A stretch of 49,131 nt of DNA. Origin: a virus. A model generated the notes under the pieces. It searched no databases, was not told the DNA's origin, and saw only the letters and a list, made by a program, of their open reading frames with translations. The translations under genes were made by a program, and so were the position numbers. The stretch is taken from IMG/VR virus record IMGVR_UViG_3300007351_000017, positions 1 to 49,131 of that record; one strand, 5' to 3'. Shown piece after piece: positions 21,616-49,131 of this stretch; position 1 is the first letter of the stretch, and every line of letters starts with the position of its first letter.

Positions 21616-21784
21616 GATTAGCATCCTCCAACTCGGCGCCGTTACGCCGGAGATCCTCTTCCAAGGAAGGCAAAGGCTCGAGCCCAAGGATACGCTCAAT
21701 GCGCTCCACGCGGCAATAAAGCTTGCCTAGTGCGGCTCGAGTTTTGTCAACTCGCTTTCGCAGATTCTTCGGTCGAATTTCCAT
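21593..21784 (-). CDS. hypothetical 63-aa protein
   Basis: GGAGG lies 7 nt upstream of the ATG at 21784. It overlaps the neighbouring genes at both ends. Confidence 0.5.
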   Translation of the reverse strand: MEIRPKNLRKRVDKTRAALGKLYCRVERIERILGLEPLPSLEEDLRRNGAELEDANHACNEAG

Positions 21785-23087: not shown

Positions 23088-23231
23088 ATTTTGCTCCTTT
23101 CCTTTTGCGGGTGTGGGGTTCCCGCGTTGCTGCAAATCGCCACAAGGTTGTTGTCACGCGCCATTGCTCCTTCCCACCTCAGCCCCACTCTGGGGTGCCG
23201 CCCTCGCTACGCTGTGGGCGGTGCGGCTAGA

Positions 23232-33961: not shown

Positions 33962-35675
33962 CGCCGCTCAAATTCTCTGCGAGCAAGGCCAGGAGGCCCT
34001 GGGCGAAGCTGTCCGGGCGTTAACGCCGCGTGAGCGCGATGACTTTCGGCAGCGTGAACGAGCCCGATGCCGTAAGTCCCTTTTCTATCTTGCTCGAACG
34101 GTTCTTGGGTTTTCAAAGCTCACATCACATCTACATCTTCAGGTCTGCGACTTCGTCCAACGTCCGGTGCACCGACTTGATAGCGGAGAGTTGACTCGCC
34201 GTAAGGGCGTTATCCTACCACGGGGACATTTCAAATCTTCCTGCGTCACCCTATCTTACCCAATTTGGTTGGTGATCCAGCCTGACCTCGGCCGCGTTCC
34301 GGTGTCGTCGAGTTGGGATAATGACGAAGTCTCGCCTTTGTTCGGCGATCCCACGATGGACGAAGTGCCAGGCAAAGACCTTACGATGTTGATCGCTAAC
34401 GAAACGGCGACTGGCGCCGAACATTTCTTGAGCTGGATCGAGCAAGTATTCGAAGGCAATGAGTTCTTCCGCTTTTTGTTTTGGGAACTCTGTCCTCGTC
34501 CTGGCGTTAACGTGAAACGTTGGAACCAAAAGGAAATGCTTTTACCGGGCAGGGGGATCAACCGGCCTGAAGCCACAATTGAAACGATTGGGGTGGGCGG
34601 CGCTGCTCAAGGTCGCCATTACCGCATTCAAATCAAAGATGACCTCGTTGGAAAAAATGCGATGGAATCGCTGGAGGTAATGGCAAAAACCCGCGAGTGG
34701 GTTACGTACAGCGACTCAATCTTCGTCAACCCCACAACCGATATTGACTTGTTTGTCGGCACTCGGTGGGCCCGAGGGGACATCTACGATGATTACTTTA
34801 GAGATGGGCGCTATGCGGTTTTCACTCGGCGCGCTATTGAAGATGGTAGACCCCTCTTTCCTGAAGAGTTTTCCTTGGACTTTTTCAATCACATTGCCAA
34901 GCGGCGACCTTTCTATTTCCGATCTCAGTATCAAAACGACCCACGAGGCGAAGGCGCTATTGATCTCGATTCAGCACGTCTCCAAAGATATGAGCTTCGG
35001 CGAACCGAGAATGACGTCTCGTTCATTGTGCGAACTCCGAATCCAAACGGCGGCGCCGATCTCATAGAGCGCATCATGCTCGGCGGTTGCTTTGGTGCAA
35101 TGTCCCTCGATCCGTCACATTCGGAGAACCTCCGTACCGGCTCGCGGAAGGCGATTCTTGTTTGTGCAAGGGATTGGAAAGGCCGGACGTTTGTGATTGA
35201 TGGCTGGACAAGCCGCGGTTCGCATGACGAAATGTTTGACGCGGCGTTTAGGCTGTACGAGCGGTATGGGTTTACCCTTGGCATTGAAACCGTGGCGTTT
35301 CAGAAGTTCCTTTTGTGGGCGTTCAAAAAAGAGGAACGCCGTCGGCGCCAATGGATCTCCAAACGTGCTCTTTTAACATCGACCAAAAAGACAAAGGTTG
35401 AGCGCATTCGCTCTACGATTCAGAATGATTTGAATCTCGAGTTGCTGTATGTGCCTGAGTCTGGGATGTCACCGGATTTTCAGGACGTGATTCAAATCCT
35501 TCTTGAGTCAATGGATAACTTTCCGGAATCGCAGGATCTTGATGTGCTCGATTGTTTGGCGTATTGCTTGCAAATGCTGGCCTCCGGCGAACCGATGTCG
35601 GAGGAAGATGCGCGGAGTGCTGAAGAAGGCGAAACGCGGGAACATGAGCTGCGCTCCGCTTTAACGGGGTATTGA
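33951..35675 (+). CDS. terL: terminase large subunit
   Basis: GVILPRGHFKSS (P-loop variant typical of terminases), VGTRWARGDIYDDY, and a C-terminal RNaseH-like nuclease region (VLDCLAY). 574 aa. Confidence 0.8.
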   Translation: MLNNAAQILCEQGQEALGEAVRALTPRERDDFRQRERARCRKSLFYLARTVLGFSKLTSHLHLQVCDFVQRPVHRLDSGELTRRKGVILPRGHFKSSCVTLSYPIWLVIQPDLGRVPVSSSWDNDEVSPLFGDPTMDEVPGKDLTMLIANETATGAEHFLSWIEQVFEGNEFFRFLFWELCPRPGVNVKRWNQKEMLLPGRGINRPEATIETIGVGGAAQGRHYRIQIKDDLVGKNAMESLEVMAKTREWVTYSDSIFVNPTTDIDLFVGTRWARGDIYDDYFRDGRYAVFTRRAIEDGRPLFPEEFSLDFFNHIAKRRPFYFRSQYQNDPRGEGAIDLDSARLQRYELRRTENDVSFIVRTPNPNGGADLIERIMLGGCFGAMSLDPSHSENLRTGSRKAILVCARDWKGRTFVIDGWTSRGSHDEMFDAAFRLYERYGFTLGIETVAFQKFLLWAFKKEERRRRQWISKRALLTSTKKTKVERIRSTIQNDLNLELLYVPESGMSPDFQDVIQILLESMDNFPESQDLDVLDCLAYCLQMLASGEPMSEEDARSAEEGETREHELRSALTGY

Positions 35676-35676
35676 G

Positions 35677-36807
35677 ATGGACCCAGGTGCAGATCCAGGT
35701 GTTGGTGATATTGGGCCCTTAGGCGACGTTGGTTTGGGGATTGATCCGGGTATGGGGGTTGATCCTGGGACCTTGTCCGGGATTTTGTCCAGCTTGAGCT
35801 CGTCAGAATCTGAGTCGGAGTCTGAGACGGAGTCTACTACAGCGAACCCTGCTCACGAGTTTGCAATGATGCGCCCTGAGCGGGCGTTTCAAATAAATCA
35901 GCAGTTGAAGCTGGGAAACCTTGCAGCAGTACCTAGTAACATTTTGTCCTCGATAATGAATATGCCTTCAGTGAAAAGCGCGTATAGCGCGGCAAAGCTG
36001 GGTAAATCAGTTGTGTCTGGGATTCGCGGCGCAGCTGCGGGCTCGAAATCGTCGTTAAGTCCTATTGGCGTCGCGCAAGCCTTCTCCAATTTAGCCCCTT
36101 CGTTTGTTACGGCGCTAAAGCACACAATCAACCCGCCAACGAACCCGCATGAGGTTGCGGCGGCGGAGTTGCAGGCGGCGATTGCTGCGGATCGGTTTGG
36201 CAAAGCGGGGCTTAAGATGGCTCTTGGCTTTCCAGCTAGCCAAATGATGTCGATTGTGGAGGCGATGGATCAACCTCCGTTGACGCCGCAGGAAATAATG
36301 GATGTTCATGCAACGCGGCTTACGCCAGATAGAAATCCGGGCTTTACCTCAATGGGACCAAATGCACTGGGGCTCGGCGAAATGCTCGGCATTGTGGACA
36401 ACGATACGTTTAACGCAGCGGTTCAGGCGGAAGTTGACTCATTAACAGATCGGCTCGGCGAATTTGCACAGCAATTTTCGTCGAAAGATATTTTTAATCA
36501 AGCTTTTCAAACCACGGCGGCGCAGTTTAGCCTTCGCGGAAACCCAAATGTTTCCTTCAACACAATGGCATTGCCAACGCAGAATCGTACGGGGACGCTT
36601 GAAGGGGTAACTGATAATAAGGGCGCACCGCTCGGCGCTGGCGCCCAGGGCCCAGGGTCGCCGACGGACTTCATCAAGGCGTTTATTAAGAGCCGTAAGA
36701 CTGACGATGAAAGCGATTATGATGAATTGCTTGCGCAGCTTGGTCAGGCTGAACATCTTCGGCGCCCCGCGCCGCCATGGCTAAAGAATCCGTGGAGACT
36801 TAGATGA
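35677..36807 (+). CDS. hypothetical protein with a D/G/P-rich and Ser/Glu/Thr-rich N-terminus
   Basis: MDPGADPGVGDIGPLGDVGLGIDPGMGVDPG then LSSLSSSESESESETESTT; 376 aa. Confidence 0.6.
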   Translation: MDPGADPGVGDIGPLGDVGLGIDPGMGVDPGTLSGILSSLSSSESESESETESTTANPAHEFAMMRPERAFQINQQLKLGNLAAVPSNILSSIMNMPSVKSAYSAAKLGKSVVSGIRGAAAGSKSSLSPIGVAQAFSNLAPSFVTALKHTINPPTNPHEVAAAELQAAIAADRFGKAGLKMALGFPASQMMSIVEAMDQPPLTPQEIMDVHATRLTPDRNPGFTSMGPNALGLGEMLGIVDNDTFNAAVQAEVDSLTDRLGEFAQQFSSKDIFNQAFQTTAAQFSLRGNPNVSFNTMALPTQNRTGTLEGVTDNKGAPLGAGAQGPGSPTDFIKAFIKSRKTDDESDYDELLAQLGQAEHLRRPAPPWLKNPWRLR

Positions 36808-37817
36808 TTAATCAAATTAACGTCATAACGACTTCAATCGCCGGAACCGGCGGAGGCCGTCTTATAGCCTTGATCCTTAACACGCTTGCGTCAAGGGGAA
36901 TCTGGCCAAGGGTTTACCTTCAACTCCTACCAGATAAAGGAATGGCGTCACTCTTGCGTGTCGGGTATCAAAGCATTGATGACTTCGTCGATGATGGGGA
37001 GCCGGTGATTTGCTTCGACACAGGTGTCGGCGGTCGTGTAGGGGAGATCTTCTTAAACTGTCGGGGGCAAAAGATCTTTTACCTTGTTCTCTTGCATGAG
37101 GAATATGAGAAAGTCTTGACTTGTCCTGACGTGGTGAAGGTTGGGTACTCGAGCTTTCTTTGCCGTGCGGCGAACGGCGTTGGGTATTTCCCAGGGCCTA
37201 CGGACGTTTATAACTTCTTTCCCGATTCGGATCTTCCTCGGTCAAACTACGTTTTGTATTACATGAAAAAGGCGGGTTGGGTTGGAGTGAGCGCCGTAGA
37301 GATGATCTGCCAGGCAAAGCCTGGGATGATCCCTGCGACGCTTGGGATGGATGGGATGAATGAGCGGGTACTCGCTGAGGGTCATATCATTCGTCCAAAG
37401 ATGCCGATTATGGATGTCGGTGCTCCAGCACACAAGAAAGAGGCGCTTCGCCTTGCGTATCAGCGTGCACAGATGTACGTGGCCGCCGACTCAAACGGCG
37501 GTTGGGGGAATAGCCTTTGCCTTAGTGAAGCCATGCTTTGCAAATGTCCTGTGGTATCAACGGATACGCCGTGTTTTGCTGAATTTGTCATTCCGGAGGT
37601 AACGGCTCGAGCTGTACCACGGGATGCGGCGCCCGAGCTGCCACATGGCACATGGATGACTCGACCAGCGCCGGAGCATCTTAAGGCACGGGCGCTTGAG
37701 GTTTGGGATAACCCCGAGGAAACAAAGAAAATGGTTGAAGCGGCGTACACGCATGTTCGGCGGTTTGACGTTTGGGCGTGGTCCAAATGGTTTGGAGGTA
37801 TCCTTGGATCGCTTTGA
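36804..37817 (+). CDS. GT-B fold glycosyltransferase (family 1/4-like)
   Basis: C-terminal signature WGNSLCLSEAMLCKCPVVSTDTPCFAEFV resembles the GT1 E-x7-E / EAMA-G-PVV region. Confidence 0.55.
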   Translation: MINQINVITTSIAGTGGGRLIALILNTLASRGIWPRVYLQLLPDKGMASLLRVGYQSIDDFVDDGEPVICFDTGVGGRVGEIFLNCRGQKIFYLVLLHEEYEKVLTCPDVVKVGYSSFLCRAANGVGYFPGPTDVYNFFPDSDLPRSNYVLYYMKKAGWVGVSAVEMICQAKPGMIPATLGMDGMNERVLAEGHIIRPKMPIMDVGAPAHKKEALRLAYQRAQMYVAADSNGGWGNSLCLSEAMLCKCPVVSTDTPCFAEFVIPEVTARAVPRDAAPELPHGTWMTRPAPEHLKARALEVWDNPEETKKMVEAAYTHVRRFDVWAWSKWFGGILGSL

Positions 37818-39777
37818 TCCGGTGCTCGGCGCACTTGTGCAGGATCTCCGTGGGAATTGGGAGGGCACAAGTACCCTCAGCCCTAACGTAACCGGCACGG
37901 GTGCCCTGACGCCTGAGGCCGCGGAGCGGAACGCCGCCGTAGGCAAGATGTTGATGGAACTTGCCTTTGGCGCTTCGGCTGGCCCAGGCACGGTGGCCTC
38001 CGCGCAAGAGGCAGCTAAAGGCCAAGAGCAAATTCCCCAGCTTTTGTGGGGCGAAGCCGCAGGGGCGCCGAGGGAACTTGAAGGCTGGGAGAGGGGGCTC
38101 GCAGCCCTTGGGGGAATTCCCTTCTTGGGGATGCTTGCAAAGGGCGCCGGTCAAAGTGAGCGCTTTTTCTCCAAACTTGGGGGCTGGGCCAAAAAGCCGG
38201 GACGGTTCCCAAAGGAAGCGCCCGCTGAAGAGTTTAGTAATATCTTGATGAGTGGAGTCAAAAAGGGAGAGTTCAAACCGGAGGAGCTTGAATGGAACGC
38301 CGTTTCGGGGTTGCTGAAAGATCGCGTAGGGGAGAAGCTCACACGTGAAGATGTGATTGATGCGATTGACTTGGGTGGGGTTAAGGTGGAGGAGAAAGTG
38401 TATTCTTCGCGAGGGTACGAGGATAAGCAAAGGCTCTTAGAGGAGCAAGCTAACCTTCGAAATGAATTACGAGGACTGGAGTACCCACTCTTTAATGTTG
38501 GCCTGGGGCGCGCCGTCGTAGAACGCTTAACAGGAAGACCCTTACGCCCTGATGAAAGCCATATTGTGCGCCTTCGCGAATATGTGCATGAGCAGCGAGC
38601 ACAAGGGAATTCGTTTACCTTGGCCGATTATGGTCGGTACCGAGATCAGTATAGACGTGACCTCGAGGCTCGCGGCGAGAGCTATATTGATAATACTCGA
38701 GCGGAGGAAATTCGTACACGCCTAAGTGAAACTTATCAAGAGTTGGGTGAATTAGAACAGAACAAGACGCGTTGGTCCCAATATTCTCTTCCCGGCGATG
38801 AGCCTGGCTCGTATAGGGAATTGATTATGACGCTGGATCGCCCACCAGGCAAGAATAGGGAAGCAATGTTTGCTGAAGCTGATCGTATAAATGCAGAGAT
38901 TTCTGCTGTTGGGGGAGGTCGGACTTGGGACGATCTTACTGAGGCAGAGCGGCGTGAGGCTGATAGGTTGGTTGATGAAGCAGCACAAATACATGAAATT
39001 ATCCGCTATGAGGGGCAGGAGTCCTTCACACACGAAGGTCATTGGCCAAACGTGGAGAATCCCCTTCTTCATGTTCGATTCGGCGAACGCTATATTGATG
39101 GAAAACGCACGCTTTTCGTGCATGAAATGCAGAGTGATTGGCATCAGCAGGGTGCAAAAGCAGGTTACCAAGAGGCGAAGCCCTACGTACGCGGTATGGG
39201 GGAATGGCAAGAGGATATTCAACCTGTACCAAACGCTCCATTTAAGAAATCCTGGCCTGAGCTCGGCATGAAACGGATGCTGATCTGGGCGAAGGAAAAC
39301 GGGTATGAGCGGATTGCGTGGCCGGGGACGCCGGCGCAAATGGAACGAATTGAGGGCCATTCAAAAGAGGGCCTCCGGCGCTGGTACAACGAAGTTATGC
39401 CGAATACAATGAACAAGCTGATGAAGCCATATGGTGGAAAGGTGCAACGCACCAGCGGTGCGGATGCCGATAACCTCGAGACGATGAAGATTCGGCTCGC
39501 CCATTACTTCATGGAGCAGCACGGCGATTCCATTGAGGATGCTGCCCGGGGCATAAATGAGATGTCCCCTGGGGAGATCGAATTTCATTACACTCGAGCG
39601 GGGCTTGCGGCGCCGGAGAAAGGCCAGGTCAATTACATTGATTTGCCCGAGGCAACGCCGCGGTCTTGGCCGTTGTTTATTGGGGCGCCGATGATCGGCA
39701 TAGCGCAGCCACGAACTGCGGAGCAAGGCGAGTATGATCCTGCCCTTGGCGGTGTGCTTATTGGAGCATCTCAATAA
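37804..39777 (+). CDS. large hypothetical protein (657 aa), possible virion-associated/polyvalent-type protein
   Basis: TTG at 37804 lies 5 nt after GGAGG; the track start 37696 lies inside the GT gene. Conserved-looking block HEGHWPNVENPLLHVRF...LFVHEMQSDWHQQG; function unknown. Confidence 0.6.
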   Translation: MDRFDPVLGALVQDLRGNWEGTSTLSPNVTGTGALTPEAAERNAAVGKMLMELAFGASAGPGTVASAQEAAKGQEQIPQLLWGEAAGAPRELEGWERGLAALGGIPFLGMLAKGAGQSERFFSKLGGWAKKPGRFPKEAPAEEFSNILMSGVKKGEFKPEELEWNAVSGLLKDRVGEKLTREDVIDAIDLGGVKVEEKVYSSRGYEDKQRLLEEQANLRNELRGLEYPLFNVGLGRAVVERLTGRPLRPDESHIVRLREYVHEQRAQGNSFTLADYGRYRDQYRRDLEARGESYIDNTRAEEIRTRLSETYQELGELEQNKTRWSQYSLPGDEPGSYRELIMTLDRPPGKNREAMFAEADRINAEISAVGGGRTWDDLTEAERREADRLVDEAAQIHEIIRYEGQESFTHEGHWPNVENPLLHVRFGERYIDGKRTLFVHEMQSDWHQQGAKAGYQEAKPYVRGMGEWQEDIQPVPNAPFKKSWPELGMKRMLIWAKENGYERIAWPGTPAQMERIEGHSKEGLRRWYNEVMPNTMNKLMKPYGGKVQRTSGADADNLETMKIRLAHYFMEQHGDSIEDAARGINEMSPGEIEFHYTRAGLAAPEKGQVNYIDLPEATPRSWPLFIGAPMIGIAQPRTAEQGEYDPALGGVLIGASQ

Positions 39778-40295
39778 TGGGCTACTTTTACAAAGGTCCG
39801 CATACCTACGGCGATATCAAAGTGCTGGATTGTGGCGGTCCGTACAACGTCTATGCAGGAAAGTTCTGCTCAATCGCCGAAGGCGTTGAGGCATATTTGG
39901 ACTGCGATCATCGACCAGATTTCATTTCAACGTATCCCTTTTCCCAATGGGGTTTGCCCACGCCAGGGCATCCTTTTGGGAAAGGGGATATCACGATTGG
40001 GAATGATGTTTGGGTTGGGCGTAAGGCAACTTTGATGTCCGGCATTACGATTGGCAATGGCGCTGTTATTGGGGCGCATTCTGTTGTAACAAAGTTCGTT
40101 CCCGGGTACACCGTTGTAGCAGGGAGTCCAGCGAAAATTCGAAAGTATCGCTTTGACAACAATACAATCCTGTGGCTGCAAGAGCTTTGCTGGTGGGATT
40201 GGCCAGAGGAAATTATCGCTAGGGCTGCACCAATATTGATGTCCTCGGACATTGAGGCATTGCGGAGGTTTGTGCGTGACAATTTCATCGGGTGA
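39777..40295 (+). CDS. xenobiotic acetyltransferase (XAT) class hexapeptide-repeat acyltransferase (Vat/CatB-like)
   Basis: GKFCSIAEGV...CDHRPDFISTYPF...KGDITIGNDVWVGRKATLMSGITIGNGAVIGAHSVVTKFVPGYTVVAGSPAKIRKYRFDNNTILWLQELCWWDWP aligns by eye with Vat(D)/CatB along most of its length, including the catalytic-His context. Confidence 0.8.
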   Translation: MGYFYKGPHTYGDIKVLDCGGPYNVYAGKFCSIAEGVEAYLDCDHRPDFISTYPFSQWGLPTPGHPFGKGDITIGNDVWVGRKATLMSGITIGNGAVIGAHSVVTKFVPGYTVVAGSPAKIRKYRFDNNTILWLQELCWWDWPEEIIARAAPILMSSDIEALRRFVRDNFIG

Positions 40296-40510: not shown

Positions 40511-40869
40511 TGGGTGAGTTCTTCGGCGACGTTTCGAGTGGGATGGCACCGCAGGGTTGGGGGTATTTACTCGGCGAACTTGGGCGCGAAGCGATCTTTA
40601 GCGGCGTGAAATCGTTGTTTGGTGGCTCGACCCAGGCGCCAACTGCGTCAGCGCAGTTCCCTAACATTGCGACGGCGGGAAGCAAACGGGGGAATCCGGC
40701 GTATGAGGATGAGCTGCTTGCGAAGGTATTGATGCATATCCTTAAGCAAGCGAAGATGGGCCAAGCGCCGCAGCGCCGTATTACCTCGTTGAACGACCTT
40801 TCTCAAGGCATGGCGCCGCCGGATATGGGCCTTATGAACCTTGACGATATGATGAGGACTTTGCAATGA
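40510..40869 (+). CDS. hypothetical protein
   Basis: TAATG coupling upstream and ATGA coupling to the portal gene. Confidence 0.6.
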   Translation: MGEFFGDVSSGMAPQGWGYLLGELGREAIFSGVKSLFGGSTQAPTASAQFPNIATAGSKRGNPAYEDELLAKVLMHILKQAKMGQAPQRRITSLNDLSQGMAPPDMGLMNLDDMMRTLQ

Positions 40870-42767
40870 TTGAGCTGAATTTAGGGCCTGGCGAACTTGA
40901 GAAGCTTTACGACGAATTAGACGAAGAGATCCAGTGGGTTGATGAGACTAATTCGGAGTATCAAGAGCGCCTTGCTCATCATCAGCGCCTTTACCTTGGT
41001 AAGCCAAAGCAAAAGGTGAAAAATTTTCCTTGGCCCCGTGCAAGCAATGTTGTTGTTCCGATTGTGGGTACCTTCGTTGATGCGGTGTTTGCGAGGCATA
41101 TGAATTCGCTGTTTGGAACGCCGACATTTTGGATGACAAAGGCTTTGTCAAAGGCCTGGGTTCCTGCGGCGCCGCTTTGGCGGGATTTCCTTGAATATGA
41201 GTCGTACTATACGTTTGGGCTGTGGAATTTCAGCTGCAACTTTTTGATGACGGCGGTTAAGCATGGCTTAGCGATAGCTAAGGTCGCGTGGGAGCGAACG
41301 CCGGGCAAGTATTGGGTTGAAAATCCTCAGTCCAAAGGTCTTCAGGAGGTCCCGTATCTCAAAAAAGATGGCCCGATGTTGATCTCACTTCCGTTGGAAC
41401 AATGTATTTGGGCAGATGGCTCGGTCGATGTTGCTTCGGCGAGATGGGTAGGGTGGAAGTACTTCATTCATGAGCGTACGCTTGATTTCGGCGCTCGGCG
41501 GGGCTTTTACAGCAATGTTGACAAGGCGAAGGGTGGGATTGAAGAGCGACAGTTGTCGCCGGAGCAACAAGAGAAAGAAGACGCGGCAGGACGTTCGGCG
41601 GCTAGGCGTCCTCGTGGCGTTTGGCTTCATGAGGTTTCGTGGTCGCTTGACCTTGATGGAGATGGCATTGAGGAAGAGGTTGTTCTTTGGCTTGAGCGGC
41701 GAACTCGGACGATAGTTCGTGCGACCTGGCATCCGTATTGGCATCAGCGCCGATATTTCGTCGGGATGAATTACTGGCCGGTTGAAGGCCAGGTCGAAGG
41801 CCTGGGTATGTGTGGGATGCTGGAGCAACTTGCCGAGGCAATATCAACGGTGCACAATCAAGCAACTGATAACGCAACCGCCGCGAATACTCGGATTTGG
41901 GGAGCTAAGCCCGGCAACCCGCAGATTCGGCAGGGAATGCAACTCTATCCTGGAAAGGTCGTGTTCCTTGACGATCCGGAGAAGGACCTCGTTGGAAAGC
42001 AGCTCGGCGAAGTGTATCCATCAATTATCGAGCGAGAGGCTATACTTCGTGATTACTCAGAGCGCCGTGTGGGGGTTACGGATTACAGCCTTGGGCGAGA
42101 GTCACCTGTTGTCGGGTGGCGAGCTACAGCAACGTCTACGTTGTCGCTTTTGCAAGAAGCCGCTAGAAGATTTGATCTTACACTTCGATCTATTCGCGAG
42201 GGATATCGTGAGGTTGGGCTGCAAGTGACGGAGTTATATCAGCAATATAAGCCAATGGAGCGGCTTGCTAACTTTTTTGAGGAGAGGTTGCCGGAGGTGT
42301 TGTATTTCATGCAGCATCCGCCGTCCCGCGTGCGAGATGGGCTTGATGTGATGGTGGCGGCGTCCTCGGCTTCGCAAAACCGGGAGCAAGAAAAAGAGAG
42401 CTTTTTGCAGCTTTTCCAAATCTTGCAGACCTATTATTCAAGTGTTTTCAATGCGGCAGCGGCGATCGAAAATCCGCAAATTGGACCGCTGGCAAAGGGC
42501 TCATTGATCGCGTCGCTTGAGCGTGGTGGGGAATTGATGAAGCGCCTCCTTGAGGCGTGGCCGTTGCCTGATCCAAAAACCTTTGTGGTAGATCAAGGTG
42601 CAATTATGGAGGTGTTGAATGGCCTTAGGGGACAGAATCCCGGTGGGGTACCTGGAACCGGTGGCCCAGCAATGGCTGGACGACCCACTAACGCAGGCGT
42701 TCTTCCGCCACCTGGCGGCGGCCCAGGAGCGGGCGTTGGCGGAATGGGAGAAGGCGAAAACATATGA
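40866..42767 (+). CDS. portal protein (Gly/Pro-rich C-terminus)
   Basis: 633 aa, upstream of the scaffold and capsid genes. Assigned by size, position and general portal-like composition. Confidence 0.6.
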   Translation: MIELNLGPGELEKLYDELDEEIQWVDETNSEYQERLAHHQRLYLGKPKQKVKNFPWPRASNVVVPIVGTFVDAVFARHMNSLFGTPTFWMTKALSKAWVPAAPLWRDFLEYESYYTFGLWNFSCNFLMTAVKHGLAIAKVAWERTPGKYWVENPQSKGLQEVPYLKKDGPMLISLPLEQCIWADGSVDVASARWVGWKYFIHERTLDFGARRGFYSNVDKAKGGIEERQLSPEQQEKEDAAGRSAARRPRGVWLHEVSWSLDLDGDGIEEEVVLWLERRTRTIVRATWHPYWHQRRYFVGMNYWPVEGQVEGLGMCGMLEQLAEAISTVHNQATDNATAANTRIWGAKPGNPQIRQGMQLYPGKVVFLDDPEKDLVGKQLGEVYPSIIEREAILRDYSERRVGVTDYSLGRESPVVGWRATATSTLSLLQEAARRFDLTLRSIREGYREVGLQVTELYQQYKPMERLANFFEERLPEVLYFMQHPPSRVRDGLDVMVAASSASQNREQEKESFLQLFQILQTYYSSVFNAAAAIENPQIGPLAKGSLIASLERGGELMKRLLEAWPLPDPKTFVVDQGAIMEVLNGLRGQNPGGVPGTGGPAMAGRPTNAGVLPPPGGGPGAGVGGMGEGENI

Positions 42768-42833
42768 AGATCATGTTCGGTGTAGGGAAGTTTACTTCGG
42801 CGTCGAATGGGTGTTTCGGGCGCCGATAGTCTT

Positions 42834-42848
42834 ATGGGCTAAGCCCAT
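42834..42848. promoter_or_regulatory. palindrome ATGGGC-TAA-GCCCAT upstream of the scaffold/capsid genes
   Basis: Same 6-bp arms and 3-bp spacer as 32415-32429. It lies in the 105-bp portal-scaffold gap. Confidence 0.35.
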
Positions 42849-42872
42849 ACAACCCGAGGTGGAGGATTAGAA

Positions 42873-43568
42873 ATGGAGCAACCTGGAGAAGGCAGTGGGG
42901 CGATTGATCCGAAGGTTCTCTTAGAGAGACTCGGCGCCTTGCATCAGCAAGTGGAGGGGCTTGCTGGCAAGGTCGAAGGGATTGAGGAGCTGAAGACGGG
43001 CCTGGCCACAATTGCGAAAGCCGCAGAAACTGCTGCAGCGGCGCAGAAGAGGCCTCCGGCGGAGCCATCGGCGAAGGACGGTCCGAGTCGTGAGGATATC
43101 CGTGTGGGGCTGTTTGAAAAACCGGATGAGATTCTTGGCTCGCTGATTGAGCAAAAGAACAAACCGGTGGTTGGGCTTGTTCTTGAGACTCGGCGTCAAA
43201 TGGCAAAGATGGAGGCTCGGACACAGCATCAGGATTGGGAGCGATATGCGGCGGAGATTGATTCGGTGGAGCAGCAGGTTACACCCTCGGCGCTTGCAAT
43301 GCCTGGCGCATATGAGGCGCTTTACCGAATGGTAAAGGGGCGTCACACCGACGACCTTGTCAAAGAAGCTGTGGCGAACGCCGCGAAAGATCCGGCGAAT
43401 TTCAAAGAGGGCCCGGGGCGGGGTCCGGCGAAGACGCCGCAGGAAAAGGCTGCAGCGACGGAGCTTTCGGCGGATGAGGATGCTGCACGGTCGCTTTTCG
43501 GCTTGTCGAAGGAAGAATGGATAAAATATCAGGGCTTTGGAATGCCTGAGGCAAAGGAGGCAAAGTAG
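42873..43568 (+). CDS. scaffolding-like protein
   Basis: Ala/Glu/Lys-rich helical 231-aa protein between the portal and capsid genes. Confidence 0.55.
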   Translation: MEQPGEGSGAIDPKVLLERLGALHQQVEGLAGKVEGIEELKTGLATIAKAAETAAAAQKRPPAEPSAKDGPSREDIRVGLFEKPDEILGSLIEQKNKPVVGLVLETRRQMAKMEARTQHQDWERYAAEIDSVEQQVTPSALAMPGAYEALYRMVKGRHTDDLVKEAVANAAKDPANFKEGPGRGPAKTPQEKAAATELSADEDAARSLFGLSKEEWIKYQGFGMPEAKEAK

Positions 43569-44033
43569 ATGACTGTGAAGGAAAAAACGCCGGTCGTTCG
43601 GGTGGAGCCTGGTGATGCGATTATTGACGACCAGTCTGACATTCGCCAGCTCAAAGAGTTCCTTGCTCGCTTTCGCAGTGATGCCTTTTTAGCGGTTCGA
43701 GGAAAGAAGGTTGATAAGCATTACATGTGGGTAATCAACCATACTCGCGCTGTGGCGCAGTATTTGTCATATGGCTTCACCGTATGTAAAGATCCGGATA
43801 TTGTCGTCTGGGATCAGGGCGGAATGGGTTCTGAGAAAGCAGACGGTAGTAAGGTCGTAGGGGACCTTATCCTTATGGAGATGCCGATGGAGCGCTGGAG
43901 AATGTTCGAAGAACTCCGGCTCGAGAGGCTTAGGGATTTCCTCGGCGGTCCGAAACGGGCCAAAGAGCAGTTTCATCATGATGGTAAGTCATCTGGTGTA
44001 GAGACCTTTGAAGCAAGCGGAAAGACGTTCTAA
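43569..44033 (+). CDS. hypothetical head-module protein
   Basis: AAGGAGG RBS; 154 aa. Confidence 0.55.
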   Translation: MTVKEKTPVVRVEPGDAIIDDQSDIRQLKEFLARFRSDAFLAVRGKKVDKHYMWVINHTRAVAQYLSYGFTVCKDPDIVVWDQGGMGSEKADGSKVVGDLILMEMPMERWRMFEELRLERLRDFLGGPKRAKEQFHHDGKSSGVETFEASGKTF

Positions 44034-44048
44034 GGAGGTAACGCAGAC

Positions 44049-44597
44049 TTGGCAACGATCACTTTGGGCAAGATCGAGTTTGCGTTCACAATCTCGGGCA
44101 ATAGCCCGATGGTGCTGGCGTTTCCGGAGTCCACGAGCCTTGCTGCTGTGGCGGGAGAGGTTGTTTATCTCTCAGCGGGGCAGGTGACCGAAGCGGCAAA
44201 TTCGAGCTATGTCATTACGACATCGCCGCTCCTCGGCGTTCTCGCGGACGATGGCCAGAACACCACGGCGAACCTGTACAACGCAGGTGTCTACATCGCT
44301 AACCAGGACAACGTGTTTTCGGCGAACTTGGTTAACGACTCGGGAACCAGGATTGTGACGCACAAAGGGTACGTGGGTGCGACTCTGGGGCTTTACGCCG
44401 ATACAACGAACAGCAAGGTCTATGCCGCTGGAACCGCGGTAGCGACCGGCGTTATTCGACCTGCTCAGGTTTCAACAACGGCGTATCCTCGGATTCGCGT
44501 TTTGGCTCTGGACAAACGGGACACGGAGGGCGATACTGGCGGTCGGGTTTTGTTTGTGTTCATGCCGCAGCATTGCCAGCTGATGTCTACATCGTAG
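44049..44597 (+). CDS. head decoration / accessory capsid-like protein
   Basis: TTG start 10 nt after GGAGG. Beta-rich 182-aa protein immediately upstream of the capsid gene. Confidence 0.5.
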   Translation: MATITLGKIEFAFTISGNSPMVLAFPESTSLAAVAGEVVYLSAGQVTEAANSSYVITTSPLLGVLADDGQNTTANLYNAGVYIANQDNVFSANLVNDSGTRIVTHKGYVGATLGLYADTTNSKVYAAGTAVATGVIRPAQVSTTAYPRIRVLALDKRDTEGDTGGRVLFVFMPQHCQLMSTS

Positions 44598-44610
44598 AGG
44601 AGGTGAGGAG

Positions 44611-45519
44611 ATGACTATCCGGTCAACGAACTTCTCGGAGCTCCTCGCCCCTGGACTGCGAAAGATCTATTTCGACAAGTTCAATGAGCTTCCGACGGAG
44701 TACGACAAAATCGCCAACGTCATGACAACTAAGCGAGCTTACGAGGATGATTATCGTATGGCTGGCTTTGGGTTGTGGGGGACCAAGACGGAAGGCACGG
44801 CAACAACGTATAGCGATGCAATGCCGGGAGGCACGAGGCGCTACACCCCATCGCCGTTTGGGCTCGGCTTCCGCATCACGCGGGAGATGGTGGATGACGA
44901 CCTGTATATGGTGATGGGCAAAAGGATGTCAGCGAAGTTGGCTTGGGCAGGTCGGGCCACGGTGGAGAACACCTTTGCGGGCCTTATCAACGATGCCTTC
45001 AACGGAACAACGTACACGGGCTTTGATAGCCTTGCACTTTGCAGCACCGTGCATACGCTTCTTAGAGGAGGAACGTATGCGAACAAGCCGTCTACCGACA
45101 CAACCCTTTCGGTGACGGCGCTCCAGGCAGCGATTAACTCATTCGACAACATGGTCTCGGATGAGAACCTCAAGATCGCCCTGCGCCCACGGACGCTTTT
45201 GGTAGCGCCGGAGTGGAAGTGGGCTGCGCGTGAGATCCTTCGGTCGGAGTACAAGCCGTACACGGCGAACAATGAGGTGAATCCGCTGAAAGAGGAAGAC
45301 CTGCAATTCATGGTCTATCATTATTTCAGCTCGACCGACGATTGGCATCTCATGGCTGCTCCCGGGCAGCATGACGTGAACTTCTTCTGGCGCATCCGTC
45401 CGGAGTTTCACAACGGCGACGACTTTGACACCGGCGATGCGAAGTTCCGCGGGTATCAGCGGTACACCTGCGGATTTGGGGACTGGCACGGCTGGTATGG
45501 GAGCAGCGGTGCAGCGTAA
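44611..45519 (+). CDS. major capsid protein
   Basis: 302 aa with GGAGGTGAGGAG RBS. Position and length fit an HK97-fold coat protein. Confidence 0.65.
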   Translation: MTIRSTNFSELLAPGLRKIYFDKFNELPTEYDKIANVMTTKRAYEDDYRMAGFGLWGTKTEGTATTYSDAMPGGTRRYTPSPFGLGFRITREMVDDDLYMVMGKRMSAKLAWAGRATVENTFAGLINDAFNGTTYTGFDSLALCSTVHTLLRGGTYANKPSTDTTLSVTALQAAINSFDNMVSDENLKIALRPRTLLVAPEWKWAAREILRSEYKPYTANNEVNPLKEEDLQFMVYHYFSSTDDWHLMAAPGQHDVNFFWRIRPEFHNGDDFDTGDAKFRGYQRYTCGFGDWHGWYGSSGAA

Positions 45520-45538
45520 CCGCGGGAGGAGGTGACGC

Positions 45539-45799
45539 ATGGCCGCAATTGATAAGACTGATGTTGGGGTGACGACCTTCGCCACCGTTGCGGGGAAGTT
45601 GGTTGGTGCAGGATTCTTCACCGTTGAGGGGTCTGGGCAGGCTTTCACGGGGATATATTGTGAAAGTGAGACCAGCGCCGGTGTCGTAACCACGTCGTAT
45701 CTCTGGCCGAGCACAACTGGTGTTTGGCAAAAGGGAACGACCCAGCCTACTATTGCAACGCAGGATTCAGCGGGCGCGGCGATTGGCGCCGCTGATTAG
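45539..45799 (+). CDS. Thr/Ser/Gly-rich small protein
   Basis: GGAGGAGGTGA RBS; 86 aa. It lies between the capsid gene and the glycosyltransferase cluster. Confidence 0.55.
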   Translation: MAAIDKTDVGVTTFATVAGKLVGAGFFTVEGSGQAFTGIYCESETSAGVVTTSYLWPSTTGVWQKGTTQPTIATQDSAGAAIGAAD

Positions 45800-45808
45800 G
45801 AGTTCAAA

Positions 45809-46711
45809 ATGGTTGACATCCAAATCGCTATTATGACCTATAGTGGGTCGGAGCGGGATGGAATTTTGGCAGATGCGGCTGAGCGAGTTAGACGCTTGCT
45901 CAGTAGTATCTGTCGAAACACCGAACGAAGGGTTCCTCGGATTGTGGTGTCGGATGAGGACTCTGTGAACGCTGACGGCATTATGAAAGTAAGCGCCGTT
46001 GCTAAGGCGTTCGGCGTTGAGTGGCGACTCAACGTTCCGTGGGGAGGAGTCTCCGCGAACTACAACAATGGAGTCCGTGCAACCGACTCGAAGTGGGTGA
46101 TTTGTTTATCTGACGATACGGTGGTCACAAAGGGTTGGCTTACGGCGATGGAATACTTCATTTTAATGAATGAAGATCTTGGCCTTGGCCAACTTGGCTG
46201 GCCCCTTATCTTCTCGTATCGGATGAAACTTCACGGCCTGATCAGCCAAGAGGAGGAGTTTTACAACGGAAAGTTGCGGCTTGAGGACTTTGATCCGTTG
46301 GCGGTTTACCACCTGAACGAAGACGGCATGGGCTTTGCCCCTTATCTCCGAGGAAACTGCTCCGGGAGCGCGTTTGTACTTGACCGAGGGCTCTTTGATC
46401 AAATGGGTGGATTTCCTGAGGATAATTTTCAGCCGGACGAGTACTTCGGGTGGTGGACTTGGGTCAACACAAATCGGCTTTGTGTGCAGGTTCCGGCGCC
46501 GCCAGTCTTCCACTACGGTGGCGCATCCAGCTGGGGTGACCATGCGAAGCATGAGAGCTCCCCTTACAATACGACCCGGCGGTCGTGGGAACGGTTGACT
46601 GGCGTTCCCTTCGAAAAGCGGGGAGCCGACTCTGTTCAAATTGCGAACTCCAAAAGCTGGAAGCTTCGTGATATGCGATTCCTTCGGTGGTGGGAAGATG
46701 ATCGGACTTGA
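45809..46711 (+). CDS. GT-A fold glycosyltransferase (family 2-like)
   Basis: IAIMTYSGSE N-terminal strand, ANYNNGVRATDSKWVICLSDDTVV (DxD context). Confidence 0.65.
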   Translation: MVDIQIAIMTYSGSERDGILADAAERVRRLLSSICRNTERRVPRIVVSDEDSVNADGIMKVSAVAKAFGVEWRLNVPWGGVSANYNNGVRATDSKWVICLSDDTVVTKGWLTAMEYFILMNEDLGLGQLGWPLIFSYRMKLHGLISQEEEFYNGKLRLEDFDPLAVYHLNEDGMGFAPYLRGNCSGSAFVLDRGLFDQMGGFPEDNFQPDEYFGWWTWVNTNRLCVQVPAPPVFHYGGASSWGDHAKHESSPYNTTRRSWERLTGVPFEKRGADSVQIANSKSWKLRDMRFLRWWEDDRT

Positions 46712-47156
46712 CCTTGGGTGTGGAAGATACCGCATGCCCTTGCCGAGGTGCTTCGGAGTAGACCTCAAAAAAGAGGCTCTGCCTGAGGTGGTCGGCGACT
46801 GCGCGTGTCTTCCTGTCAAGTCTGAATCAGTCCAATACGTGTATTGCTCTCACGTGTTGGAACACTTCACTAAGGAGGGAGGCGAGGAACTTCTGCAGGA
46901 AATTTGGAGAGTGTTGGTGCCGTTAGGAACTCTTTTCCTAACGGTGCCCAACCTCTCCTGGGCTATGTGTAACATGGAGCGTGGGCCTGTTGCTCTTCAA
47001 GTTCTGTATGGAGGGCAGCATGATGCGCTTGATGTGCATAAGTGGGGATACACAAAGAAAAGTGTGTGCGATGCGCTGCAACGCGCAGGATTTTCGGTAA
47101 CCTATGCTAGAGAGCAGTACTACCAAATTAACTTAGATGCAAGGAGGCTAGGATGA
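46698..47156 (+). CDS. class I SAM-dependent methyltransferase
   Basis: IGLDLGCG (motif I), YCSHVLEHF, RVLVPLGTLFLTVPN. The ATG at 46698 overlaps the GT2 end by 14 nt. Confidence 0.7.
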   Translation: MIGLDLGCGRYRMPLPRCFGVDLKKEALPEVVGDCACLPVKSESVQYVYCSHVLEHFTKEGGEELLQEIWRVLVPLGTLFLTVPNLSWAMCNMERGPVALQVLYGGQHDALDVHKWGYTKKSVCDALQRAGFSVTYAREQYYQINLDARRLG

Positions 47157-48022
47157 TTATCGGCGTTCCATCTGGAATAGGGGACATTTCTTGGGCGTAT
47201 AGCAAGCTGTGCCATGTTGGGCAGTTGGATTACGAAATTGCTACAGGGTGGCCATTTCGAGCGGATGAGTATATGAAGATGCTTCCTGGGGTTAGGGTAG
47301 TTATGTATGGGGATTTTTCATTTGATGAAATAGTGGCGTTTGAGCAGGTTCAGTTGAAGATAGGAAATGGAATGGTGACTTGGCAAGCTGTAAAGGATTC
47401 GGGGTATGGGCGAGTGCTGCTGCAACCAAATCACCATTTAGAGCGCGGGATTCCTCTTCAGCGCTGGATGCCAGATTTGGAAACAGATTATCATTACCCA
47501 ATGAACATTCCTCAGACGGCAGTGGCTACGGCGGAGTCCCTTCTGTTCGGCGTTCCACGTCGTGAGACTTTAGTCGGAATATCTTGTGCCTCTTACCGTG
47601 GCGCGAAGGCGTGGAAAACTTGGGAACTTTTGGAGTGGACAGATTTTTGCAAAACGTTGTTAGCCGAAGGCTTTGGCCTTATTTTTCTCGGCGGTCGTTG
47701 GGATGATCTTACAGACGCTGTGGCGCTTGAGTTCACTGAGTGGCCTAACCTCGTTGGAAAAACGTCATTCGCTACTGCTTGTGCGTTGCATCAAATGGTT
47801 CCTTGGTACGTTGGCTTTTCATCTGGCCTGGGTATCATCAGAACTGTGTTACGGCAGAATTGCATGATGCTTTGGCCGGAGCATCAGCAACCCTTGTCTA
47901 CATCTTGGGCCGATCCGGAGGATTTAGAAACGCGAAGGTATGTAGTAAGCCCTTATGTGGCACTAAATACCGTAACGAAGATATTTCTTCGTCATGCGAA
48001 GGAGACACAAAATGGCGAATGA
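47153..48022 (+). CDS. GT9-like glycosyltransferase (heptosyltransferase fold)
   Basis: AKAWKTWELLEWTDFCKTLLAEGFGLIFLGGRWDD...NLVGKTSF...YVGFSSGLGI follows the GT9 C-terminal domain pattern. Confidence 0.6.
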   Translation: MIIGVPSGIGDISWAYSKLCHVGQLDYEIATGWPFRADEYMKMLPGVRVVMYGDFSFDEIVAFEQVQLKIGNGMVTWQAVKDSGYGRVLLQPNHHLERGIPLQRWMPDLETDYHYPMNIPQTAVATAESLLFGVPRRETLVGISCASYRGAKAWKTWELLEWTDFCKTLLAEGFGLIFLGGRWDDLTDAVALEFTEWPNLVGKTSFATACALHQMVPWYVGFSSGLGIIRTVLRQNCMMLWPEHQQPLSTSWADPEDLETRRYVVSPYVALNTVTKIFLRHAKETQNGE

Positions 48023-48290
48023 TGTGCAGGGGAATCCGTGGGTGATTGATACGGCTAGTGCGACGGCGCTTACAAGCAACCTCGTTAAGATTAGCCGTAT
48101 GGTATGGCGAGAGCCCACAACCGTTGGACATGCTCTTAGCGTAACGGACGCTAACAGCAAAGAGGTTTGGGACGAGTATGCGATTGCTGCAGGAAACGGC
48201 ATTAACTACGAACGTGAAGTAGAGAATTGGGTCAATGGGCTCATTGTTCCGACGCTCGATAGCGGGACACTTCTTATCTACATTCGGTAA
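48012..48290 (+). CDS. hypothetical 92-aa protein
   Basis: GGAG lies 7 nt upstream of the ATG at 48012. It overlaps the GT9-like gene by 11 nt. Confidence 0.55.
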   Translation: MANDVQGNPWVIDTASATALTSNLVKISRMVWREPTTVGHALSVTDANSKEVWDEYAIAAGNGINYEREVENWVNGLIVPTLDSGTLLIYIR

Positions 48291-48300
48291 GGAGCAGGCA

Positions 48301-49131
48301 ATGAAGAAACTTTGGGTTACTTTGCTGATCTTGCTCTTTGCAGCGTCAGCGTCGGCGATTGAGCCTGGGCTTATACAGGTATGTGAAGAAGACGGAGCGC
48401 CGTGTGGATGGTTTGCAAAGCTAAAAGTTACAAATGGAACGCTTACGGATAATGCTGATAGCACAGTGTCTGTGACTACACAGGCAGCAGACGCCGACCT
48501 AACGTCCATCGCCGGAGGGGTGACCGGCATTGTCAAGGGCCTTGGCAACGGCAGTGGCTTTACGGCTGCGGCTGCCGGGACGGATTACGTCGGTGGTGCT
48601 GCCTCCTCCACGGACAACGAGCTTGTGCGGTATGACTCGACCTCGGGGAAGGTGATACAGACGTCGTCGGTCATCCTTGACGACACATACAAGCTCTACC
48701 GCAACAGCACGACGGATGCGCACACCCTTTGTCTGCAAGGCTATCACGGGGACAGCACGGCGTTTGTTGACGCCCTCTGTATCGAGAACGAAACGGCGGC
48801 ATTAGGTAAAGTGAAGGTGACAGTAGGCGCCAACGCCACCTTTGAGACTGGCACCATACTCGTTGCTTCCGACTCCATCCACGCCCAGACGGGGACGACA
48901 GCAGACGATGATATGTATCTCGCTGCTTACGACGTGGACGGGGCCGCATATCGAAACCTCATTACCCTGAAGGCCAGCAACACCCCTCAACTCCTGCTCA
49001 AGTCAACAGCCGTGATGAACCTCGGCGGTGTGGGGGGGACGAACAACGAAGACTTAACACTCGACTTTGAGACCACGGCGAATACTGTCGCGGTTGCCAG
49101 CACCACGGGAGTAACGGCTATTTCCCTTGGC
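48301..49131 (+). CDS. 5' part of the junction-spanning secreted tail-fibre-like protein
   Basis: AAGGAG RBS. Signal-peptide-like MKKLWVTLLILLFAASASA and fibre-type motif TDNELVRYDSTSGKVIQTSSVILDD. No stop codon before the window end; it continues at base 100. Confidence 0.8.
   Translation, partial: MKKLWVTLLILLFAASASAIEPGLIQVCEEDGAPCGWFAKLKVTNGTLTDNADSTVSVTTQAADADLTSIAGGVTGIVKGLGNGSGFTAAAAGTDYVGGAASSTDNELVRYDSTSGKVIQTSSVILDDTYKLYRNSTTDAHTLCLQGYHGDSTAFVDALCIENETAALGKVKVTVGANATFETGTILVASDSIHAQTGTTADDDMYLAAYDVDGAAYRNLITLKASNTPQLLLKSTAVMNLGGVGGTNNEDLTLDFETTANTVAVASTTGVTAISLG
49033..49131. repeat. terminal direct repeat, copy 2
   Basis: Identical to bases 1-99. Confidence 0.95.

Follow-up and report, generated by a model that had tools for sequence, protein, structure and literature searches.

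A capsid-adjacent gene cassette with a conserved GT9-fold enzyme as a candidate protein glycosylation system in uncultured phages with SU10-type portals

Several systems that attach sugars to proteins or DNA have been described in bacteria and viruses. The bacterial enzymes AAH and TibC O-heptosylate AIDA-I and TibA in the cytoplasm before export, and TibC forms a dodecameric, iron-binding assembly. The chlorovirus PBCV-1, a eukaryotic algal giant virus, uses its own machinery, including A064R, to N-glycosylate its major capsid protein independently of the host. Glycosylation of mycobacteriophage virions has reportedly been described by Freeman et al. in 2023. According to three reports, tandem phage glycosyltransferases (GTs) and an O-methyltransferase of the mycobacteriophages Che8, Corndog, and Myrna modify capsid and tail-tube subunits, with the glycans reportedly located at the C termini of these subunits (PMC11600133, PMC12363180, PMC12619734). 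Within the literature searched, self-encoded virion glycosylation has so far been demonstrated in actinobacteriophages only, where it acts in antibody shielding. The DNA-hypermodification clusters analyzed by Pyle et al. combine GT-A and GT-B enzymes with sugar-tailoring genes and build mono- to trisaccharides on 5-hydroxymethylcytosine (5hmC; 10.1101/2023.12.21.572611). Here, we analyzed the IMG/VR virus record IMGVR_UViG_3300007351_000017, a stretch of 49,131 nucleotides (nt) hereafter called the window, in which a cassette encoding a family-2 glycosyltransferase (GT2), a methyltransferase (MT) that depends on S-adenosylmethionine (SAM), and a GT9-fold enzyme lies downstream of the major capsid gene. 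We propose that this cassette glycosylates, in the cytoplasm, a phage-encoded and probably virion protein, a reading that we hold with evenly divided confidence and whose target we infer. It builds on the enzyme families, the structure of the operon, the conservation of the locus across the clade, and its co-divergence with the capsid gene, all of which we observed directly.

The cassette starts with the GT2 gene (45809-46711) and continues with the MT gene (46698-47156) and the GT9 gene (47153-48022), all on the + strand. GT2 and MT overlap by 14 nt, MT and GT9 by 4 nt (ATGA), and GT9 and the following gene, small2, by 11 nt. The major capsid gene (44611-45519, + strand) ends 19 nt before a gene for an 86-amino acid (aa) protein, which we call small1, and small1 in turn ends 9 nt before GT2. 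A ribosome-binding site precedes each of these two genes, that of small1 being GGGAGGAGG within the 19-nt gap. Thus, the three open reading frames (ORFs) that a first-pass annotation, made from the letters alone, had placed after the capsid gene and the 86-aa gene exist at these positions and overlap start to stop as it had described. The overlapping genes of the cassette fit translational coupling. A promoter and terminator scan of positions 42700-49131 stayed at background level, with no convincing signal inside the capsid-cassette block, and the capsid gene heads a block that is co-transcribed with the cassette.

The GT2 and GT9 proteins gave no match in a tblastn search of 50,697 records of cultured or deposited phages, and no deposited phage has a capsid protein more than 40% identical to that of the window. 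The nearest deposited capsid protein is that of Bacillus phage PK1 (OM112209.1, locus L005), with 39.6% identity. PK1 itself carries a NeuD/PglB/VioB-type sugar acetyltransferase gene (38537-39214) beside a β-helix protein in its structural region and has neither GT9 nor small1. Homologues of GT9 were found on metagenomic contigs of 44-52 kb. From IMG/VR, we collected 30 loci with a GT9 profile and found 381 capsid-protein relatives, of which the best 80 were kept. For 111 loci, ORFs were called, their proteins were clustered, and the clusters were labeled by Pfam and precomputed annotations; loci with and without the GT9 gene are referred to as GT9+ and GT9-. A search for the same cassette in related metagenomic phages had been suggested at the outset, and it recovered the order portal, scaffold, two small proteins, capsid, small1, cassette, and GT9 in 30 distinct loci.

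While this order was kept, the content of the cassette varied, with one to eight genes and 646-5843 nt in the interval from the capsid gene to GT9 (30 loci). GT2 was present in 20 of the 30 loci and a methyltransferase in 24, the latter drawn from several unrelated families; in L017, for instance, an enzyme of the RMNT_CmcI rhamnosyl-O-methyltransferase family replaces the MT of the window. Six of the cassettes contained NAD epimerase/dehydratases and three contained B12-radical-SAM enzymes, and further genes encoded GT4 enzymes, a hexapeptide acetyltransferase, ATP-grasp proteins, and occasional LAGLIDADG homing endonucleases. In L002 (5950-7477), the cassette encodes a GmhA-like phosphoheptose isomerase (PDB 1x94, E 8e-9) together with an HddA/WcbL-type heptose-7-phosphate kinase (PDB 3k85, 4n3o, and 4usk, E ~1e-33). 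These two enzymes represent the first steps of the nucleotide-heptose pathway and provide the best indirect support that the GT9-fold enzyme handles heptose in at least one relative; the sugar that GT9 transfers in the window may possibly be a heptose. The methylated or acetylated oligosaccharide that had been suggested as the product is strengthened by the epimerase/dehydratases, the rhamnosyl-O-methyltransferase family, the heptose genes, and the GT2-MT fusions found in relatives (see below). As to the homing endonucleases, LAGLIDADG genes lie in or beside the capsid-cassette region in L002 (9567-10004), in L009 (between capsid and small1), in L031, and in L054 (9879-10346), and the capsid ORF of L009, which adjoins such a gene, appears truncated (236 aa).

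We then compared the divergence of GT9 with that of the capsid protein. Pairwise identities of GT9 (30-94%) tracked those of the capsid (32-99%) with a Pearson r of 0.84, and none of 2000 Mantel permutations reached this r (29 GT9+ loci). Thus, GT9 has long been inherited with the head genes and is not recently acquired cargo. GT9 and its cassette have also been lost in some relatives: the capsid protein of L039 is 79% identical to that of the GT9+ locus L007, yet L039 has no cassette. Other relatives carry ordinary fiber-like genes at the cassette position or, in L054 and L069, an unrelated GT-A gene and two GT4 genes. At the other end of the range, the smallest cassettes consist of small1-GT9 (L033) or small1-MT-GT9 (L025, L032, and L036). 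Because GT9 is the sole glycosyltransferase in these four cassettes, it must act on the acceptor directly there, and orthology suggests the same initiating role in the window. GT9 is the conserved anchor of the cassette and probably its initiating, acceptor-recognizing transferase.

The GT9-like protein of the window has 289 aa and a GT-B fold, an assignment that comes from its family profile and from AlphaFold and Foldseek. Taken alone, it remains under the Pfam cut-off (PF01075, 17.6 bits versus 22, E 0.0026). A profile built from 50 family sequences, however, matched WaaF (1psw) with an E of 2e-6, and the search for homologues returned 259 proteins, many with precomputed PF01075 matches. 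The AlphaFold model reached a predicted local distance difference test (pLDDT) score of 96.2, and its nine best Foldseek matches were WaaF, a Veillonella GT9 enzyme (3tov), and WaaC, with E values of 2e-8 to 2e-7 and template modeling (TM) scores of 0.55-0.64. The family profile and the structural comparison, which the first-pass annotation had proposed as a check, thus bear out its description of a heptosyltransferase-fold, GT9-like enzyme. TibC was also among the structural matches, but only weakly (E 5e-4 to 3e-3, TM 0.37-0.43), while the T4 α- and β-glucosyltransferases were not among the 50 best.

The catalytic-base motif of the family is PSGIGD, whose aspartate (D11) is invariant in the 50 sequences and aligns with D13 of WaaC (SSMGD) and with the SWVGD motif of WaaF. 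The K-x-W nucleotide-sugar region is also kept. At the D(T/S)GL motif of WaaC and WaaF, the phage family has GFSSGLG, with serine in place of the aspartate; we take this aspartate of the sugar-binding motif to be D261 in WaaC. Furthermore, the N-terminal acceptor domain of the phage family is acidic, with a mean net charge of -4.7 (range -9 to +2, n=50), compared with +7 and +6 and a pI of 9.7-9.9 for the corresponding domains of Escherichia coli WaaC and WaaF, and the GT9 protein is acidic overall as well. The acidic acceptor domain argues against an anionic lipopolysaccharide (LPS) core or DNA as the acceptor. So far, the family has been found on phage-like contigs only. BFVD contains GT9-like proteins from uncultured phages at 11-13% identity, and our literature searches tied none of them to a functional study.

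The GT2 protein matched PF00535 above the gathering score (30.3 bits versus 23.3, E 4.7e-7), in agreement with its earlier description as a GT-A family-2-like enzyme, although this match covers residues 24-118 only. The residues D102-D103 (the DXD motif, in LSDDT), D210, and H235 are invariant or nearly so among 23 homologues. Thus, by its profile and motifs, GT2 is classified as an ordinary GT-A enzyme, and it probably extends the chain. Its AlphaFold model, made from five input sequences, had a mean pLDDT of 57.9 and was confident at residues 1-120 only. The best Foldseek matches of this model, which is poor beyond these residues, were all GT2 enzymes (TarP, BcsA, PcManGT, K4CP, and TarS, E 1e-8 to 1e-6). 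A word-indexed homologue search found four relatives of the window GT2; an exhaustive search of representatives with a profile of two sequences gave 15 matches, mostly to proteins of ~80 aa, and was uninformative. No match was found in PHROGs for GT2, GT9, small1, or small2.

The MT is a minimal class I SAM-dependent methyltransferase of 152 aa. It matched PF08241 with 39.5 bits against a gathering score of 21.2 (E 9e-10), as expected from the first-pass annotation, and it carries the glycine-rich SAM motif I, IGLDLGCG, at about residues 2-9. It is probably a sugar O-methyltransferase. In three relatives, GT2 and MT form one protein of ~470 aa (L001:7565-8989, L002:4523-5953, and L008:8595-10004), whose GT2 and MT parts share 37% and 25% identity, respectively, with their counterparts in the window. 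This fusion indicates that the two activities are functionally linked.

Two more sugar-modifying enzymes are encoded upstream in the window. The gene at 36804-37817 (+ strand) encodes a GT1/GT4-like, GT-B glycosyltransferase, as shown by a PF00534 match (E 2.7e-7); it belongs to phrog_2170, of the moron category. The gene at 39777-40295 (+ strand) encodes a hexapeptide-repeat O-acetyltransferase of the XAT class and Vat/CatB type, with a PF00132 Hexapep match (E 5e-11) and NCBIfam matches to Vat (E 4.7e-38) and WbbJ (E 2e-18), both of which are under the equivalog cut-offs. Both family assignments had been made before from the sequence and were upheld, as was the placement of these two genes and of the cassette inside the late structural operon. 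The GT1/GT4-like gene clusters with GT1 genes of L001, L002, and L004, and the XAT gene clusters with Hexapep genes of L001 and L002. Because L001 and L002 carry these orthologues within the cassette that follows the capsid gene, the five window enzymes plausibly form one system that is split over two sites.

All five enzymes are acidic, and none has a transmembrane segment, the maximal 19-residue Kyte-Doolittle hydropathy being below 1.5. The window encodes no flippase, no protein of the GtrA/GtrC or Wzx/Wzy/WaaL types, and no membrane-anchored glycosyltransferase. Pfam scans at E <= 0.01, which took in nearly all window ORFs of at least 90 aa on the coding strands, found no C5-cytosine methyltransferase or 5mYOX, no TET/JBP-type dioxygenase, and no thymidylate-synthase-like hydroxymethylase, although highly divergent forms could escape such scans. 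The same scans detected no integrase or recombinase.

Next, we considered which protein could serve as the acceptor. The gene directly after the capsid gene, small1 (45539-45799, + strand), encodes a Thr/Ser/Gly-rich orphan protein. A word-indexed search found two relatives of it, while a hidden Markov model built from the family alignment gave matches immediately behind the capsid gene in 24 of the 30 distinct GT9+ loci. Pfam, PDB-sequence searches, and hhalign revealed no relatives of small1 and no relationship to Phage_cement_2, to the pre-capsid protein c2, or to small2, and the profiles of c2 and small2 had no significant PDB-sequence match. In three loci, the slot of small1 is taken by a Phage_cement_2 protein (PF09956, 25.5 bits versus a gathering score of 24), which suggests that the product of this slot is an accessory protein of the capsid surface. 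Where small1 occurs in GT9+ loci, which is in 24 of them, it always measures 69-92 aa and has a free C terminus. Its tail is conserved and contains Thr/Ser, ending in GTVVGxQ(S/T) or, in the subgroup of the window, in TQD(S/T)AGAA. The GT9- loci that have a small1 domain all carry a C-terminal extension of ~100-115 aa, giving total lengths of 188 (L039), 182 (L047), 184 (L050), and ~196 aa (L107). The same free tail (GTVVGTQT) was found in the GT9+ locus L029, where a 442-aa fiber-like protein (13052-14380) ends in a small1-type module. We read this correlation as suggesting that a glycan and a protein domain may be alternative elaborations of the small1 C terminus, which would make small1 a candidate capsid-associated glycan acceptor. 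In the cassette-less loci L047-L051, the extended small1 is followed by a 345-aa multi-transmembrane protein (L047:5503-6540 and its homologues), in which a motif resembling the H-x-x-N-D...E-x-G of O-antigen ligases and Wzy_C can be recognized by eye; the L047 protein had no Pfam match at E <= 0.01.

From these data, a possible course of the modification can be sketched. At its core, the GT9-fold enzyme would transfer a first sugar, possibly a heptose, directly onto a phage-made protein. GT2 would then extend the chain, and the small SAM-dependent methyltransferase would O-methylate one of its sugars. Another sugar and an O-acetyl group could come from the GT4-like enzyme and the XAT acetyltransferase, whose genes lie at other sites of the late operon. 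The likeliest acceptor would be a protein of the virion surface, the free C-terminal tail of small1 being the specific candidate, and the particle would end up covered with a glycan coat that varies in composition among related phages. We infer the order of these steps, the sugars, and the acceptor from the genes. A phage protein is favored as the acceptor because the operon is shared with the head genes, because of the mycobacteriophage precedent, and because of the small1 correlation; overall, the evidence on the acceptor, all of it indirect, speaks more for a phage-made protein than for host LPS or DNA. In its most specific form, which we put forward tentatively and regard as rather doubtful, the proposal is that a large clade of uncultured phages with SU10-type portals has a vertically inherited, capsid-linked protein-glycosylation island of variable content, in which a phage-specific GT9 family starts the O-glycosylation (possibly heptosylation) of the free tail of small1, a dedicated capsid-accessory protein of ~80 aa, and tailoring enzymes diversify the glycan, while phages that lost the island extend small1 by the ~100-aa domain.

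Several observations weigh against a virion protein as the target. The correlation between small1 length and the cassette comes down to about four independent cassette-less lineages and is uncorrected for phylogeny. The capsid protein shows no acceptor signature, its C terminus (WRGVYGSSGG) being the same with and without GT9. The GT9 model is nearest to heptosyltransferases of the lipid A core (E ~2e-8) and farther from the protein heptosyltransferase TibC. Finally, some of the reported DNA-glycosylation clusters, which include heptose on 5hmC, lie near structural genes (10.1101/2023.12.21.572611).

The genes downstream of the cassette bear on one of the other explanations. The 92-aa protein small2 (48012-48290, + strand; clusters s2 and 13), at the downstream edge of the cassette, is a conserved protein of the structural module, and its homologues in these two clusters follow GT9 in many loci. 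GT9- loci have them too, in the order capsid, cluster 23, cluster 13, and onward to the adaptor gene; because the family also occurs in relatives without the cassette, small2 is not part of the glycosylation system. It is followed by four consecutive coupled genes on the + strand. Their products, 286-674 aa long, all begin with a textbook Sec signal peptide and contain between 6 and 10 cysteines. The first, of 400 aa, spans the junction of the terminal repeat described below (48301-49131 and then 1-471; N terminus MKKLWVTLLILLFAASASA followed by IE). The others are encoded at 471-1331 (MKRLILALLLLPLTAWG followed by QV), 1336-2637 (MITRAFFVLFYVLCGLSQSHA followed by AC), and 2634-4658 (LKKLLAILLLLTALNAEA followed by AT). 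A PKD domain and a weak GEVED match were found in these proteins. The earlier statement that the cassette lies between capsid and fiber genes is therefore not borne out, as the next four genes encode signal-peptide, multi-cysteine proteins, which are at most putative fibers. Sec signal peptides would be unusual for presumed tail-fiber genes of a tailed phage.

Among proteins of at least 200 aa encoded downstream of the capsid gene, signal-peptide-like ones made up 20 of 174 in GT9+ loci and 4 of 133 in GT9- loci (Fisher p=0.009, by a crude rule and uncorrected for phylogeny). Some of the signal-peptide proteins of relatives are pectate-lyase/tailspike-like or lectin-like and have long Pro/Thr linkers. 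No signal-peptide gene adjoins GT9 in L001, L007, L019, or L033. S/T-rich tracts were only weakly enriched in GT9+ loci, occurring there in 7 of 677 proteins versus 5 of 827. Pure poly-Thr/Ser, mucin-like tracts were seen in three structural-region proteins of GT9+ loci (L001:12573-13472, L001:15512-15802, and L017:16844-17560) and in none of GT9- loci. Directly after the signal-peptide genes of the window lies a probable lysis cassette (4677-5117 and 5427-5789). One of its proteins has a transmembrane segment at the N terminus; the other, of 120 aa, shows an H...D...H motif that by eye resembles that of M15 peptidases.

These genes raise the possibility that the enzymes glycosylate co-encoded exported proteins before their Sec export, in the manner of AAH and TibC, with the four signal-peptide proteins and the tailspike- or lectin-like proteins of relatives as candidates. 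The four coupled genes with their signal peptides and several cysteines directly follow the cassette, such proteins are more common in GT9+ than in GT9- loci (p=0.009), Pro/Thr linkers and pectate-lyase- or lectin-like proteins occur among the candidates, pure poly-Thr/Ser tracts are confined to GT9+ loci, and TibC is among the structural matches of GT9. We nevertheless consider this unlikely: the rule for signal peptides is crude and the statistics ignore phylogeny, the adjacency of GT9 and signal-peptide genes is not conserved, the TibC match is weak and GT9 is ~90-100 residues shorter than TibC chains, and a multi-sugar chain with methyl and acetyl groups would suit unfolded Sec substrates poorly. 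We judge it similarly improbable that the cassette remodels a glycan of the host envelope (LPS core, O-antigen, or capsule) late in infection, whether to mask receptors, to exclude superinfecting phages, or to prevent the loss of progeny to debris. The window enzymes are five soluble proteins with no membrane glycosyltransferase, flippase, or ligase beside them, there is no integrase or recombinase among the scanned ORFs, and scans of 185,579 species-representative genomes with GT9 and capsid patterns gave no match and thus no prophage copy. Because the cassette is co-transcribed with the capsid gene, exclusion would come too late to be useful. The acidic acceptor domain, set against the strongly basic one of WaaC and WaaF, the serine in place of the D(T/S)GL aspartate, and the co-divergence of GT9 with the capsid gene point in the same direction. 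What speaks for an envelope target is that WaaF and WaaC are the solved structures nearest to GT9, that GT2 resembles TarP, a prophage-encoded glycosyltransferase of wall teichoic acid, that the acetyltransferase is similar to WbbJ/WcaF, and that genes for lysis and for exported proteins are close by.

Phage DNA is another conceivable acceptor, hypermodified with a glycan for evasion of restriction, as by the phage GT clusters that act on 5hmC or 5-hydroxymethyluracil (5hmU). The variable content of the cassette would suit an arms race with restriction systems, and the phage encodes its own DNA polymerase PolA and a ParB-fused N6/N4 DNA methylase. On the other hand, the Pfam scans found no enzyme that makes 5hmC or 5hmU, no T4 glucosyltransferase appeared among the 50 best structural matches, GT9 is acidic, its acceptor domain included, and the cassette consistently accompanies the capsid gene and small1, not the replication genes. 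It is because the DNA-glycan clusters cited above, heptose among their products, were found near structural genes (10.1101/2023.12.21.572611) that we retain this explanation, as quite an unlikely one. Very improbable, in our view, is auxiliary metabolic cargo that has no dedicated phage target and diverts host nucleotide sugars or acts on a small molecule. It is true that glycosyltransferases and methyltransferases are common moron annotations, that the GT1 gene falls in such a category (phrog_2170), and that NCBIfam showed a similarity, weak and far under the cut-offs, to the mycofactocin enzymes MftF and MftM. Cargo of this kind would, however, hardly account for a fixed position in 30 loci, co-divergence with the capsid, and translational coupling within a head operon.

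The remainder of the window has the layout of a complete phage genome. Positions 1-99 are identical to 49033-49131, and because both ends share these 99 bases as a direct terminal repeat, the window represents a complete, circularly assembled genome of ~49,032 bp. One gene, that of the first signal-peptide protein, crosses the repeat junction. On the + strand, the late operon starts at ~33.3 kb, passes through the repeat, and ends at ~17.6 kb. It includes the terminase large subunit (33951-35675, + strand; phrog_38, E 1e-51), the SU10-type portal (40866-42767, + strand), a scaffold-like gene and two small head-module genes between the portal and capsid genes, the major capsid protein of the HK97/Mu gpT-like type (PF25209, E 3.5e-18; phrog_371), and the SU10-type adaptor (7806-8429, + strand) with tail genes nearby. 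The replication genes are on the - strand and encode PolA, the ParB-fused methylase, a PD-(D/E)XK nuclease, and a DUF3987 protein. PolA, a family A polymerase, has an N-terminal domain of the UDG superfamily, and the methylase, an N6/N4 DNA methylase, is fused to a ParB N-terminal domain (19309-21699 and 21747-23135, respectively, - strand). Among the tail genes of the GT9+ relative L003, we also noted a sulfatase-family protein (PF00884; 9637-10890).

If the cassette does act on a virion protein, virion glycosylation would extend to an abundant environmental lineage, with 381 capsid relatives in IMG/VR and 259 GT9 homologues, and glycan-coated capsids would be common among environmental phages and not a peculiarity of mycobacteriophages. 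A minimal system would be defined by small1, a methyltransferase, and GT9, and the phage enzymes could represent a new family of protein-directed GT9 transferases. The variable cassette would mean that, in nature, diversifying selection acts on the glycans of the virion surface, which bears on phage-host recognition, the persistence of particles, and the engineering of therapeutic phages. Should the target prove to be DNA or host LPS, one would still have to explain why the cassette has stayed linked to the capsid gene.

Compared with the described systems, the locus shares features with several of them. Like the DNA-hypermodification clusters of Pyle et al., it combines GT-A and GT-B enzymes with tailoring genes, and heptose among the products and proximity to structural genes in some clusters add to the likeness. 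Those clusters, however, have a C5-methyltransferase with 5mYOX or a ThyS-like partner, none of which was found in the window, and their GT-B enzymes resemble T4 β-glucosyltransferase and have a charged DNA-binding groove, whereas the window GT9 is acidic. The locus also differs from gtrABC and other serotype-converting modules, as its enzymes have no transmembrane segment and it comes with neither an integrase nor prophage copies. With WaaC and WaaF, its best structural matches, GT9 shares the GT-B fold, the catalytic aspartate of the G-D motif, and the K-x-W region. It is shorter (289 aa versus 323-348 aa), has an acidic and not a basic acceptor domain and a serine for the D(T/S)GL aspartate, falls under the Pfam GT9 cut-off when taken alone, and is encoded in a phage head operon. 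AAH and TibC are similar in that a GT9-related enzyme is encoded by a gene adjoining those of exported β-rich proteins and in that TibC is a structural match, but this match is weak and TibC chains have ~370-390 residues. PBCV-1 provides a parallel to the GT2-MT fusions of L001, L002, and L008, since it has GT domains fused to a sugar methyltransferase domain, with no homology implied. The mycobacteriophage analogy drawn in the first-pass annotation is apt by function, as GTs and an O-methyltransferase lie in one cluster, but it does not extend to sequence, given the tblastn result for GT2 and GT9 against the 50,697 phage records. The virus type also differs, the genome of the window being podovirus-like and encoding an SU10-type portal and adaptor, and its putative system has a GT9-fold core in a capsid-adjacent cassette whose content varies between relatives. 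What it has in common with the mycobacteriophage system is a set of phage-encoded, soluble GTs arranged together with an O-methyltransferase and, as far as we propose here, the C terminus of a virion protein as the target and a glycan on the outside of the particle.

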